Positions 15,632 to 27,432 of a stretch of 32,000 nt of DNA are shown here, one piece after another. The stretch covers positions 2,460,001-2,492,000 of the forward strand of contig NZ_CP021983.2 of assembly GCF_002075285.3 (NCBI RefSeq), written 5' to 3'. Origin of the DNA: Halomicronema hongdechloris C2206. Its GTDB lineage: Bacteria > Cyanobacteriota > Cyanobacteriia > Phormidesmidales > Phormidesmidaceae. The first letter of the stretch is position 1; every line of letters starts with the position of its first letter. Made by a program: the position numbers and the translations under genes. The notes beneath the pieces are model-generated. The model did not search any database, was not told the DNA's origin, and was given only the letters and a program-made list of their open reading frames with translations.

Positions 15632-15743
15632 GTTATCGCCTCCAGAAAGATCAATTAACGGCATTGATCCTATAGATATGAGGCGCGTTCCTTCGGGGGG
15701 ATCAACCCCTACTTCCGTCCCTCTAGGCTCAACCAGGATCCAA

Positions 15744-15769
15744 TCTTTCGAGCTAGTCTTTCGAGCTAG
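15744..15769. repeat. Perfect 13-nt tandem duplication (TCTTTCGAGCTAG x2)
   Basis: Read directly. It lies in the divergent spacer upstream of the DUF4278 gene. Confidence 0.9.
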
Positions 15770-16087
15770 AGAGATGAACGATTTACTTTCCTTCTGTATA
15801 ATACACTACGGTTTTTCGGTCTGACAAGGGCTATGTCAGGGATTCATGAAAATAAATCGGCTATTTTAGGGCCGCCGTGGTGCCTCGGGATGCCCAATTG
15901 CCTCCATTGAGGGGCATGGTCAGGGTAAGGCAATATCGCTATGATTTGGCTAGATATGTCGGCCAGCGCCCCGGTCCCGATCAGATTCTGAGTAGTGGTT
16001 GGGGGATGGACAATAGGCGCTAGCGAGAGAAACGACCTGTTGTGGTTGGGGGCTGGTCTGCTATGTCCATTCCATCAGGACAGTGCC

Positions 16088-23616: not shown

Positions 23617-26445
23617 CTAAAAGGGCACATCGTCATCGGGGTCTGTCGGAAACGAGTCCTCATGCTGGGGCAGCTCAGGGCCAGTAGAACCGTTGCCGGC
23701 TGCTAGGTCAGTCAGATCATCATCGAGGTTTACGATCTGGCCATTGAAGAACTGGGCGAAGCTCTTGACGGCTCGGTCGAGATCCGAATCTAACGGCCAG
23801 GGGTCAGCCCCTGCGGGAGAAGAATCGGCCTGGCCCGGGGCATCTTCAGGAACGGCGTTGGTTGGTGACTGTGGCGGCTCTGCCTGGGCTGGTGGCGGTG
23901 CTGAGGAAGGCGGCGGTGCTGGCGAGGAGGGTGGTGCCGGTGCCGGGGAAGCCGCTTCCGCATCCGGTAGCACCTCTAGAGATACCTCAACCGGCCGTTG
24001 TAGCACCTGCTTAAAGGCGGCTTCTACATTGGATAGACGGCCCTGGGCCATCTTAAACAATGGTTTAGAACTAATGCCGATGCGGGCGGTGTGACCATCA
24101 CAGGCTAGAAGCTTACCCTGCTGTCGCATCAGAGTCCGAGTGCCAAAGGGCTGCAACACCGCGATGATCTGTTGCCACAGGGAGTCCAAATCATGGACAG
24201 GCGCTTCAGAGGCTGAAGCATCCGAGGGTGGGCCGGGCTGAGATGGCGTAGCCTCTGGGGAAGGTGTCGCCCTTGGTGGCGCCGGAGGCGGTCCAGCGGG
24301 CCGGGGTGGTGATGGCGCTGGTGGCTTAGGGCTGGTGGGTTGTATCGCAGAGGCTGCCGCTGGGGTGGGACTGGCAGCGCTTGCCGATGACGGTAACAAC
24401 CCCATAAGCGTCACTTCTAGCCAAAGCCGCGGTTGGCTGCTGTGCTTCACCTGGGCTTCGGCGGTGCGCAGGTGGTGCTGACTGGCCAGCACCGTCGATA
24501 ACTCTAGGCCTTGCACCAGGGTCTGCATCTCGCCCCAGGTAGCCGCCGTTACTGCCACTAAATCCTGGCGCTGGGCCGCCGTCTTGGCGATGAGCAAATC
24601 CCGATAAAACCCGGCCAGACTCTGGAGCACGATCAGGGGTTCTCGCCCCCGATCCATGAGTTTGCGGGCCTGGTCTAGCACGGTGCTGGCCTGGTTTTGG
24701 CTGATGGCTTCAACCAGGGTAAGCAGGTCGCGCTCTGGGACTGCCCCCACTAGATCCCACACCTGCTCCACAGTAATGGGAGGCTCTAACAAACTGAGTT
24801 GATCCAAGAGACTCTCGGCATCCCGCAAGCCTCCCTGGGCAATTTGGGCCACTAAGCGCACCGCCTCTGGCCCAATCTCAATGGTCTCCTGGGTGGCGAT
24901 GGTGCTGAGGTGGGTCACCATGTCTTCCAGGGGAATGCGCCGGAAGTCGAAGCGCTGACAGCGGGAAATGATGGTAGGCAGCACCCGTTGCGGGTCGGTA
25001 GTCGCCAGCACAAATACCACCTGCGGTGGCGGTTCCTCCAATGTCTTCAGCAGGGCATTGAAGGCCGCGGTGCTAAGCATGTGACAATTGTGAACCAACA
25101 AGCCGTTGGCCACAAAGTTGTGATTCGCGTCTACCTCAATATCGTAAACTCGTTCAACCCCAGCGGGGCGTACAGATACGACCGTCTCCGAATTTGTACA
25201 CCATTGAGGGGATTGCGTATTGACGTAAGTCCGACAGCCATTGTCTAGCGGCGTTTGCTCCGATAGAGACGTAGAAATATTGTCTGCCGCTACTCGCTCT
25301 GATGTAGGAGCAGCATTTGGCCACGTATCCCATGCGGGTAAGCCAATCTGCGATGAGTTGGTTCTCTTCGGCAGAGTAGCCTTCTGTATGGAACTGTATT
25401 TGAGGACTTCCTTGCGGGCTGAGGCTAAGGGAACCGTCATCCATATACCACCACGCAAGTCCCTCTTGGGAAATTTTTGATAGCCATTGTTCAGAGACCA
25501 GCTTTTGGCCGCCGTTAGGCTTGACCTGACTGAATACGGAACTGAGTTCAGGATGACAAGCTGTTGAGCAGCACACTGAGACGGAACCGTATCCGTCATT
25601 TTTGGTAGTTCTGAGCTTGGGCTGTAGGGATGCGAGTCGAGAAGCTTTATATTCTGACCATTCTTTCTGCAATTGCCCGTGGGTCCAAGCCAGTCGAGGA
25701 AAGCGTTGGTGTCCTCTAGCGTAGGGACGAAGTCGCCCATCGGTGCCGAATTTGTAGATGACAGTTCCGCATCCACAGGCACAGGCGATAGTATCTTGGC
25801 ACCTTTTTTTATGTCTTTGGCTGCTACCCATCCAATGTCTGTTCTAATCAGGTGATTTCCAGTACATCTGATCTTACGATGGGATGTTTGGATTTCCAAG
25901 ATTTCTCGTTCCCCCTGATCAAGCCAGCGCAGGATCGGCCTAAACTCCCACTGGCCAGACGCTTCGTTGTAGCTGAGCGCTTGTTTCCCTTTCAGGGTAG
26001 GATCATCAATTCTGATGAACCCATCTTTGGTATAGACCTGGGTATCCCCGGTTAGGCACTCATCAATGACGTAAACCTTGTAGCGACACTGGACTGGGGC
26101 GAATTGGGCCCGTTCGATCAGCTCACGGATGTTGTCGACGCCGGTGTTGCTGGCAGCGTCAATTTCAACGATGTCCAGGGCGGACCCGGTGGCGATGGCC
26201 TGACAGACGTCGCAGCTGCCACAGGGGGTTGGATGGGGTTGCTGCTGGGTTAGACAATTGAGAGACTTAGCCAAGATCCGGGCACTGGAGGTTTTCCCTG
26301 TGCCTCGGGGGCCGCAAAATAGATAGGCTGGAGCAATGCGCTGCTGTTGCAGGGCATTGGCTAGGGTAGTTGCGATCGCAGCTTGACCCACCAACTGGCC
26401 GAAGGTCTGCGGTCGGTATTTATGGTGCAGCGGTTCGTAGGCCAT
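23617..26445 (-). CDS. dnaX: DNA polymerase III subunit gamma/tau, interrupted by an intein
   Basis: 942 aa. It has [14 protein letters not shown], Walker [10 protein letters not shown] and the zinc module CGSCDVCQ. The Walker B/sensor region is split as VYVIDE | intein | [20 protein letters not shown]. The C-terminus has Pro/Ala-rich tau linkers. Confidence 0.95.
25154..25831 (-). CDS. LAGLIDADG (I-SceI-like, LAGLIDADG_2-type) homing endonuclease ORF nested in the intein, in the -1 frame relative to dnaX
   Basis: 225 aa ORF from the track. [12 protein letters not shown] (nt 25459-25430), [27 protein letters not shown] and AIPSMVYKF parallel I-SceI LAYWFMDDGGK / LNTQSFTFEEVEYLVKGLRNKFQLNCY / LIPQMMYKL as I recall them. 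The N-terminus has a CxCGCG...GH cysteine cluster. There is no obvious SD before the ATG. An in-frame TAG lies 5 codons upstream of the ATG. Confidence 0.75.
   Translation of the reverse strand: MGSSQRHKKRCQDTIACACGCGTVIYKFGTDGRLRPYARGHQRFPRLAWTHGQLQKEWSEYKASRLASLQPKLRTTKNDGYGSVSVCCSTACHPELSSVFSQVKPNGGQKLVSEQWLSKISQEGLAWWYMDDGSLSLSPQGSPQIQFHTEGYSAEENQLIADWLTRMGYVAKCCSYIRASSGRQYFYVSIGANAARQWLSDLRQYAIPSMVYKFGDGRICTPRWG
25804..25810 (-). other. A7 run forming an A_AAA_AAA heptamer in the dnaX zero frame (candidate -1 slippery site)
   Basis: The minus strand reads C ATA AAA AAA GGT (dnaX frame: I K K G) and CAT AAA AAA AGG (nested ORF frame: H K K R). A -1 slip here moves ribosomes from the dnaX frame into the LAGLIDADG frame. 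The functional call is hypothetical. Confidence 0.3.
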
Positions 26446-26514
26446 AGGTACTACGATAACGTCTCTCCTGAGGGATCACGCCGGCTCCCTAGTCCATCTT
26501 CCGTCTTTACCGCA

Positions 26515-27432
26515 ATGACTATGACTATTGCTGCAATCGATCGAATCTACACCGATGGTGCCTGCTCCGGAAACCCTGGTCCCGGGGGATGGGGCGTCGT
26601 AATTTACTATGGCGATGGTCAGGTCGATGAACTCGGCGAAGGGGAGCCCCAGACCACCAACAATCGTATGGAACTGCAAGCCGCCATCGCCGCCCTAGAG
26701 AGGCTCATCGCCAGCGGCCAAACCACCCCTGTCTCCCTCTACACCGACAGCGAATATGTCAAAAAGGGAATCACCCAATGGGTAACGGGTTGGAAGCGCC
26801 GTGACTGGAAAACCTCTGCCGGCAAACCCGTGCTCAATCAAGATCTTTGGCAGCAGCTAGACCACTTACATCAGCAGGTGACCCGACGGTTAACCCTGGA
26901 ATGGATCTATGTCCGTGGCCATAGTGGTGATGCAGGCAACGACCGCTGCGATGCCATCGCCCGCGGGTTTGCCCAGGGTCAACCCCCACCGCTGAGCCAA
27001 CGGCAGCCATCGCTAAACCCAACCTCACCTCAGCCAGAGACAACTGCGACGAAGCCAATTGAATCCACTTTTACTGTAAATACTCAAAATTTCGTTGCAT
27101 CTCCATCAAATTCCCATTACGATATGGAAAATGTCCATCCTGAAACCAATATGGCTGATTCAGGTGCCCCTCCTGCAACGGACACATTAGACAATCTTCC
27201 TCGGGAAGTGCGGGTCAACCAGCTCCGCAACATGCTAGAGACCCTGCACGCTGCCGACGAAATTGCTAAGCAAGGATACCTCATCACTAGCTCTGAGCTA
27301 GCCGACTTGATGGATGTGAATGCTAGCGCAGTTACGAGTCGCGGTGAGTATTGGGCTTGGCGCAATTGGACAGTATCACGGGTGCGGCGAGAAGGTAATC
27401 AGATTCTCTGGCAGTTAGAGCGTATTGATTAA
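26515..27432 (+). CDS. rnhA: Ribonuclease HI with a C-terminal extension of about 150 aa
   Basis: ORF 26383..27432. The preferred start is the ATG at 26515 ([29 protein letters not shown]...[14 protein letters not shown]...LYTDSEYV...[21 protein letters not shown]). The upstream part of the ORF overlaps the dnaX start on the other strand. The tail after about residue 150 is a low-complexity linker plus an HTH-like segment, [22 protein letters not shown]. Confidence 0.85.

Follow-up and report, generated by a model that had tools for sequence, protein, structure and literature searches.

The dnaX gene of Halomicronema hongdechloris C2206, which encodes DNA polymerase III gamma/tau, is interrupted by an intein, and this intein holds a second gene in another reading frame of the same strand. 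We analysed the locus within a stretch of 32,000 nucleotides (nt) of contig NZ_CP021983.2 (positions 2,460,001 to 2,492,000), called the window throughout. The second gene encodes a LAGLIDADG homing endonuclease of the I-SceI type from which an internal segment has been deleted. We consider it very likely that the window copy derives by deletion from a two-gene DnaX intein already known in cyanobacteria: a derivative that would still splice, would have lost its mobility and would be en route to a mini-intein.

A homing endonuclease gene nested out of frame in the dnaX intein

The window dnaX is the orthologue of the dnaX of Leptolyngbya PCC 6406, and both genes adjoin an RNase H gene. As expected of a DnaX intein allele, the intein is inserted in frame directly after the Walker-B Asp-Glu, and a Cys is the first C-extein residue (VYVIDE/CLTGDT...LLVHN/CHMLS). 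This insertion site is common to 78 cyanobacterial loci. In the dnaX frame, the intein matched Pfam Intein_splicing (9.1e-15), TIGR01445 (N-terminal, 5.5e-9), and TIGR01443 (C-terminal, 2.9e-9), the last two with scores above the cut-off. Splicing blocks A (Cys1), B (TxxH), F, and G (terminal HN) are all present, and the intact C1, TGNH, and HN/C+1 residues suggest that the intein is competent for splicing. Between the two Hint halves (intein residues ~100–290), a profile search against Pfam and NCBIfam found no match in the dnaX frame. The GC (guanine plus cytosine) content of the intein is 50%.

In the +2 frame (-1 in the other convention), this same region between the Hint halves is covered by an open reading frame (ORF) of 225 amino acids (aa) that matched Pfam LAGLIDADG_2 (PF03161, E=1.3e-16) and the I-SceI fold, while the dnaX frame is open and motif-less there. 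Neither frame contains a stop across the 225 codons. Synonymous shuffling of the dnaX codons introduced a mean of 11.3 stops in the ORF frame, and shuffling of the ORF codons a mean of 4.9 stops in the dnaX frame; none of 1000 shuffles was free of stops in either direction. The double open frame is thus far beyond chance.

The 225-aa ORF has 46 database homologues, mostly 331-aa proteins called as separate genes, to which it is 59–71% identical; the hosts include Leptolyngbya PCC 6406, Nostoc cf. commune, and Leptolyngbya NIES-3755. The first 110 residues of the 331-aa endonuclease form an extension with two CxCGCG motifs. A search of the single endonuclease sequence against PDB sequences gave no meaningful match, and a profile was needed: the profile of the 331-aa proteins matched I-WcaI (6X1J, 9.8e-9) and I-SceI (~3e-6) over residues 111–323. 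The AlphaFold2 (AF2) model of the full-length endonuclease (mean predicted local distance difference test score, pLDDT, of 86) retrieved I-WcaI (8e-12) and I-SceI (3e-11) in Foldseek at a template modelling (TM) score of ~0.74. The model of the window ORF (pLDDT 85) also retrieved I-WcaI (1.3e-7), to which it aligned over 177 columns (TM 0.58) versus 218 for the full-length enzyme.

We scanned one genome per species for this arrangement. Relatives were present in 156 genomes; 80 loci were taken and the intein could be delimited in 78. Across these 78 cyanobacterial loci, the dnaX frame was always free of stops, the endonuclease frame was always offset by +2, and no dnaX intein carried an in-frame version of the LAGLIDADG endonuclease. 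The homing endonuclease gene (HEG) was on the sense strand in all genomes examined. The intein was exactly 430 aa long in 66 of the 78 loci; 54 of these 66 contained an intact HEG ORF of 331–347 aa and 12 contained stops in the HEG. In 77 of 78 loci, the same pair of Gly and Trp codons contained an ATG, and in 51 of 78 this ATG was preceded, 11–14 nt upstream, by a Shine-Dalgarno-like AGGA that derives from an AGG Arg codon. Because the start is conserved and AGGA lies upstream in these 51 loci, the endonuclease of full-length alleles is probably translated separately from the internal ATG.

Leptolyngbya PCC 6406 illustrates the arrangement: an uninterrupted 1134-aa dnaX ORF carries a 430-aa intein, and a 331-aa LAGLIDADG ORF lies wholly within it in the other frame. 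In the public gene calls for this genome (L001:4001-6725, GCA_000332095.2), dnaX is split: there are calls for the nested 331-aa ORF and for a C-terminal fragment of 588 aa, but none for the N-terminal part. Gene callers thus either overlook the nested ORF or, as in PCC 6406, split dnaX.

Which of the two frames is under selection? We computed column entropy by codon phase over the 54 intact 430-aa inteins. In Hint-N and Hint-C, position 3 of the dnaX codons was the most variable (mean entropy 1.12 and 1.03, respectively). In the middle of the intein, the most variable position was endonuclease position 3, which is dnaX position 2 (mean entropy 0.92 versus 0.33 and 0.49). The two short overlaps at the ends of the endonuclease ORF had low entropy at all three codon positions. 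Translation of the same nucleotides in both frames gave a mean pairwise protein identity of 75% for the endonuclease frame versus 55% for the dnaX frame. When the linker nucleotides of the window were compared to those of its relatives, identity was 63% in the HEG frame and 34% in the dnaX frame. The family thus shows purifying selection in the +2 frame and a relaxed dnaX frame across the middle of the intein. Since entropy by phase and protein identity both favour the endonuclease frame there, dual coding in the selective sense is limited to about 60 + 35 nt, and elsewhere the dnaX frame is just held free of stops.

An earlier note on this DNA had proposed about 680 nt of dual coding. Both frames are indeed open over that length, but outside the two short overlaps protein-level selection acts on one frame only. 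Much else that it had described was borne out: a HEG in the -1 frame of a dnaX intein, good Hint-N and Hint-C domains, a dnaX-frame middle that is a mere motif-less linker, two frames open beyond chance, and ORF ends that overlap both Hint halves, where all codon positions are constrained in the relatives. Its view of the endonuclease as a separate gene in a shifted frame, rather than an in-frame domain, agrees with the constant +2 offset. Three of the checks that it had suggested were also run: the profile search gave a significant LAGLIDADG match in the shifted frame, the comparison of orthologues yielded neither a HEG in the dnaX frame nor a case of an extra A with a compensating indel, and by codon position the variability switches from the dnaX frame to the HEG frame in the middle of the intein.

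An internal deletion and the probable decay of the endonuclease

In its normal form, the intein has 430 aa and the endonuclease 331 aa. Alignment with full-length inteins revealed that the window allele lacks intein nt 354–671, corresponding to endonuclease residues 43–148. With this segment, a third of the endonuclease and half of the N-terminal CxCGCG extension are lost; gone are the second CxCGCG motif, the first beta-strand, and the first LAGLIDADG helix LGLIYGTLLGDGS, to which the catalytic Asp belongs (D138 of the 331-aa form). Two LAGLIDADG helices with catalytic acidic residues are expected of this enzyme type, and the window has the second alone; the HEG that the earlier note had taken to be complete is therefore truncated. 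The deletion junction shows no more than an imperfect microhomology, CAC(C)AG. The Pfam match of the full-length endonuclease begins at profile position 3, on the first LAGLIDADG motif, and that of two other alleles with partial deletions (P0011/L005 and L004, described below) begins only at profile positions 23–24; the window match nominally starts at profile position 11, on N-terminal residues that precede the deletion junction.

Single-chain enzymes of the I-SceI type need both LAGLIDADG helices, which build the domain interface and the two-metal active site. Because the first helix and its Asp are gone and both helices are needed, the 225-aa product is most likely an inactive, catalytically dead, and recently disabled remnant. 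The window element is, by the same sequence evidence, probably immobile.

The window allele has counterparts at other stages of loss. Nostoc sp. NMS2 (L004) and Fischerella sp. PCC 9431 (L005) carry independent in-frame deletions of endonuclease residues 45–138 and 27–142, respectively, and in both the remnant is open and conserved. Further alleles have inteins of 380–394 aa with stops. In L087, the intein is down to 255 aa, the ATG has become GTG, and 8 of 65 conserved columns are mismatched. Mini-inteins of 140–162 aa were found in Scytonema sp. UIC 10036 (L084), Scytonema sp. NUACC21 (L085), and Spirulina sp. CS-785/01 (L086). These mini-inteins and L087 keep the first ~20–28 and the last ~12–23 codons of the HEG in the +2 frame, as in MDSSNRHKRRNEDTVPCECGCSTLIDKFYFRNGRICSPRWG, which runs to the stop, and in two mini-intein cases the HEG ends form an open mini-ORF of 41–48 codons. 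In a control on the ATG in mini-inteins, which comprised four alleles only, GGATGG was found in three and GTG in one.

These sequences indicate that the dnaX mini-inteins arose by in-frame deletion of a HEG-bearing intein. Because they retain the HEG ends in the +2 frame, a series from full to partial to mini is visible. Since dnaX has to remain in frame, every deletion is a multiple of three. The window allele, which the earlier note had read as an intermediate in the composite origin of inteins, has arisen by deletion from the standard 430-aa intein with its 331-aa HEG, and is thus most likely an intermediate of degeneration rather than of origin. Invasion of a mini-intein by an ancestral free-standing HEG is plausible; the window does not bear on it.

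Taken together, these results suggest the following mechanism. In frame 0, Hint-N and Hint-C would be joined by a meaningless stop-free linker and translated within the 942-aa DnaX precursor, from which the intein would excise itself at VYVIDE/C...HN/CHMLS to leave a functional DnaX. In frame +2 (-1), a separate single-chain LAGLIDADG homing endonuclease of the I-SceI type would be made from its own ATG, set in the Gly-Trp codons of Hint-N, to a stop just inside Hint-C. The full-length endonuclease presumably cuts intein-less dnaX at the Walker-B site, leading to homing. The 318-nt deletion of the window allele is a multiple of three because dnaX is essential, and hence both frames were preserved; it would have disabled the endonuclease and left the element part-way to the mini-intein state. 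We are thus apparently looking at an allele caught between the full and the mini form, in which decay by multiple-of-three deletions, enforced by the host frame, incidentally keeps the endonuclease frame open.

Alternative readings and features of the locus

Several observations weigh against the reading proposed above. The remnant contains no stops and differs at only 3 of the 94 highly conserved endonuclease columns, a number that intact genes also show; this points to a recent deletion or to continuing selection on the remnant. Exact-protein look-up, in-frame intein protein search, genome scan, and metagenome scan revealed no sister allele that shares the deletion; the closest sequences had 74% (species genomes) and 67% (metagenomes) amino-acid identity. 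Three lineages (the window, L004, and L005) have independently lost nearly the same segment, each time including the catalytic Asp of the first LAGLIDADG motif, and all three kept clean remnants. Such similar deletions in three lineages may be more than an accident; the candidate causes are coincidence, a hotspot of deletion, and selection. At the site of the AGGA, the window reads AGA and so lacks the motif.

Given the three parallel losses with open and conserved remnants, the 225-aa ORF might instead be maintained by selection as a truncated protein, perhaps a nuclease-dead derivative that binds DNA and protects the site or moderates a toxic endonuclease. We regard such maintenance as unlikely. 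It is quite unlikely that the ORF is still functional and selected as a site-specific DNA-binding protein, a nickase, or the partner of another subunit. The 225 open codons, the 91 conserved columns kept, the parallel losses of residues 43–148, 45–138, and 27–142 with open and conserved remnants, and the confident AF2 model of the remainder all speak for a functional remnant. However, alignment to I-SceI shows that the first of two required helices is missing together with its Asp; AF2 confidence mirrors the alignment, not stability; loss of the endonuclease is a common fate, as seen in the full-length alleles with stops (12 of 66) and in other deletion alleles that have decayed (L087); and a recent deletion explains the conservation equally well.

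Could the endonuclease be made as a fusion to DnaX-N and Hint-N, by -1 ribosomal frameshifting or transcriptional slippage on the A AAA AAA run near the start of the ORF? The run is correctly phased for dnaX, and slippage by -1 leads exactly into the HEG frame. The frameshift site of Escherichia coli dnaX is A AAA AAG. However, a run of at least 6 A occurs in just 8 of the 78 loci, whereas the ATG 21 nt upstream is conserved in nearly all of them, gives way only to GTG or TTG in the homologous inteins of helicases described below, and is preceded by AGGA in most loci; no stimulatory structure came to light downstream, although none was looked for. Such a fusion is thus very improbable, and programmed frameshifting at the A7 run as a general mechanism was rejected because the run is not conserved.

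The frame shift could also be an artefact, with an indel in the A7 run and a compensating indel near 25195 hiding an endonuclease that is truly in frame. A homopolymer does lie near the ORF start, and two database proteins from short metagenome contigs (P0045 and P0067) start in the DnaX/Hint-N frame and finish at the HEG stop in the endonuclease frame. Yet the +2 offset with an open dnaX frame recurs in 78 of 78 independent species genomes, 70 of which lack the A run; the conserved HEG stop lies inside Hint-C, so that the HEG frame cannot join Hint-C in frame; and the variability by codon phase reflects selection in the shifted frame. As they come from short contigs and end at the HEG stop, P0045 and P0067 are frameshifted alleles, sequencing errors, or pseudogenes that would truncate DnaX, not genuine in-frame inteins. 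An artefact has next to no probability, and the sequencing-error reading with compensating indels is refuted by the orthologues. Lastly, a chance by-product of linker composition, for which the moderate GC content of the intein and nothing else could be adduced, is refuted by the Pfam match, the homologues with up to 71% identity, and the shuffles. A decaying two-gene intein therefore remains the preferred reading of the window allele.

Table 1. Features of the dnaX locus, in window coordinates.
Feature	Position	Strand	Basis
Precursor ORF of dnaX (DNA polymerase III gamma/tau), 942 aa with the intein	23617..26445	-	ORF list
N-extein, 129 aa, C-terminal end at Walker-B ...VYVIDE	26059..26445	-	Translation
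DnaX intein, 324 aa, Cys1...HN, then +1 Cys of CHMLS	25087..26058	-	Pfam/NCBIfam; shared insertion site
Hint-N splicing half, about intein residues 1-100, block B = CTGNHLIRT	25759..26058	-	TIGR01445 over residues 1-73; alignment with relatives
Predicted start codon (ATG) of the endonuclease ORF: formed by the last base of a Gly codon and the TG of the conserved Trp codon in Hint	25829..25831	-	Position kept in relatives
Out-of-frame (+2/-1) I-SceI-like LAGLIDADG_2 endonuclease ORF, 225 aa, internally deleted remnant of a 331-aa gene	25154..25831	-	Pfam
Dual-constrained overlap 1, Hint-N end over HEG N-terminus	25769..25831	-	Low entropy at all codon positions, 54 intact relatives
A7 run (A AAA AAA in the dnaX frame), probably incidental and not conserved, in the Lys/Arg-rich HEG N-terminus	25804..25810	-	At least 6 A in 8 of 78 loci
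dnaX-frame linker, Ser/Pro/Thr-rich and motif-less; merely the +1 reading of the HEG remnant	25189..25758	-	No Pfam match
Junction of the 318-nt (106-codon) in-frame deletion, ...RGHQ/RFPRLAW...	25706/25705	-	DNA alignment with full-length inteins; protein alignments
Second, sole remaining LAGLIDADG motif	25430..25459	-	Invariant alignment block; aligned to I-SceI/I-WcaI LAYWFMDDGG
Dual-constrained overlap 2, HEG C-terminus (stop TGA 25154-25156) over Hint-C start	25154..25188	-	Alignment; entropy
Hint-C splicing half	25087..25188	-	TIGR01443
C-extein, up to the stop	23617..25086	-	Translation

Two further observations concern the surroundings of the intein. The RNase H gene is divergent from dnaX (26383-27432 on the plus strand, an ORF of at most 349 aa), and the TTG listed as its start overlaps with that of dnaX on the opposite strand. 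Its counterpart at the same position in PCC 6406 has 174 aa; the window version has an additional C-terminal extension of ~150 aa. Elsewhere in the window, the Rfam glutamine riboswitch RF01739 matched positions 15682-15782 of the minus strand (49.2 bits, E=4.7e-8), where 101 nt stand against a model of 53 positions, implying an insertion or an extended form.

Related modules and known systems

The metagenome scan also recovered more distant relatives of the endonuclease (27–43% identity) nested out of frame in the inteins of other genes. In four ResIII/DExH-type helicase ORFs of 857–1039 aa that are open throughout (L118 Ga0335069_10044582, L120 Ga0334722_10001809, L121 Ga0114918_10003361, and L122 Ga0210057_1000066), an intein of ~350–400 aa follows directly after the Walker-B Asp-Glu, and its Hint-N is 41% identical to that of the window. 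The nested LAGLIDADG_2 ORFs have 348–383 aa, Pfam E-values of 1e-14 to 3e-21, an endonuclease identity of 34%, and both CxCGCG motifs; they are offset by the same +2 and start with ATG, GTG, or TTG at the same Gly-Trp codons. A nested LAGLIDADG_2 ORF was also seen in phage terminase large-subunit (GpA_ATPase) ORFs of ~940–1030 aa (L126, L128, L132, L135, and probably L124). The terminase HEGs (Pfam 1e-13 to 4e-25) have the other offset, +1 relative to the host, and no CxCGCG N-terminus; some of them continue into long C-terminal extensions. The terminase case looks like an independent out-of-frame association.

On the evidence of these sequences, the composite of Hint and out-of-frame HEG is not confined to dnaX. 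They suggest that Hint and an out-of-frame, I-SceI-like CxCGCG HEG form an old module that has moved, with its frames intact, between the Walker-B sites of ATPases (dnaX and ResIII/DExH helicases). This proposal is better supported than that of a maintained truncated protein. In a literature search of partial coverage, we found no published description of a composite module moving between ATPase genes, and the helicase and terminase inteins are the lead that follows from this work.

The out-of-frame endonuclease of the dnaX intein is itself already known. Phillips, DeSimone & Gogarten (bioRxiv 10.64898/2026.09.14.751524) describe the same architecture of the cyanobacterial dnaX intein: a LAGLIDADG ORF in the +2 frame with omega<1, whose AlphaFold model is similar to I-WcaI 6X1J, and dnaX alleles that are full, mini, or free of the intein. 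The Ssp DnaX intein is cited to Liu & Hu 1997, and splicing of its full and mini versions has been reported, as cited by Phillips et al. (bioRxiv 10.64898/2026.09.14.751524). The same preprint traces the first proposal of an endonuclease in an alternate frame of the Synechocystis DnaX intein to Gorbalenya 1998; in two later preprints that work is summarised differently, as an "alternate reading frame" in one and as "antisense" in the other. An out-of-frame HEG in an intein is among the clearest evidence that inteins consist of a splicing element and a separately acquired HEG, a case already argued for cyanobacterial dnaX. It is also a natural example of long same-strand overlapping genes within an essential bacterial gene.

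The window element shares with the published cyanobacterial DnaX intein the host gene, the Walker-B site VIDE/CHML, the Hint halves, the start of the +2 ORF at Gly-Trp, its stop inside Hint-C, the I-SceI/I-WcaI-like fold, and the frame-dependent selection. It differs from the published full (430 aa) and mini (~140 aa) classes as a 324-aa intermediate whose endonuclease ORF is open and lacks residues 43–148. The text of Phillips et al. apparently says nothing of partial-deletion alleles with an open truncated ORF or of HEG-end remnants in mini-inteins ("truncated" occurs 0 times and "deletion" once).

I-SceI and I-WcaI are single-chain LAGLIDADG_2 enzymes encoded in group I introns. They align along their entire length with the catalytic core of the full-length homologue, whose second motif, LAWWYMDDG, corresponds to LAYWFMDDG. 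Unlike these enzymes, the dnaX endonuclease is encoded in an overlapping frame within an intein and has an extra N-terminus of ~110 aa with the two CxCGCG motifs; the window copy in addition lacks the first LAGLIDADG helix.

As in canonical large inteins such as PI-SceI, Hint is interrupted at the usual position by endonuclease DNA, and mini-inteins arise by losing such DNA. In the dnaX intein, however, the endonuclease is no domain of the intein polypeptide, and the in-frame insert is a non-functional linker; mini-inteins of the dnaX family are distinct in keeping the HEG start and stop in the +2 frame. Comparable nesting is known from actinophage inteins with an out-of-frame EndoVII-like or an antisense LAGLIDADG/VSR homing endonuclease (bioRxiv 10.1101/2025.01.02.630785), from the ShiLan domain with an out-of-frame HNH in a phage methylase insertion (PMC11855218), and from fractured genes in which split inteins accompany a free-standing HEG (Dassa et al. 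2009, as cited). All share with the dnaX intein the nesting of a free-standing endonuclease gene while the host frame stays open, but they involve other nuclease families, hosts, frames, or strands.

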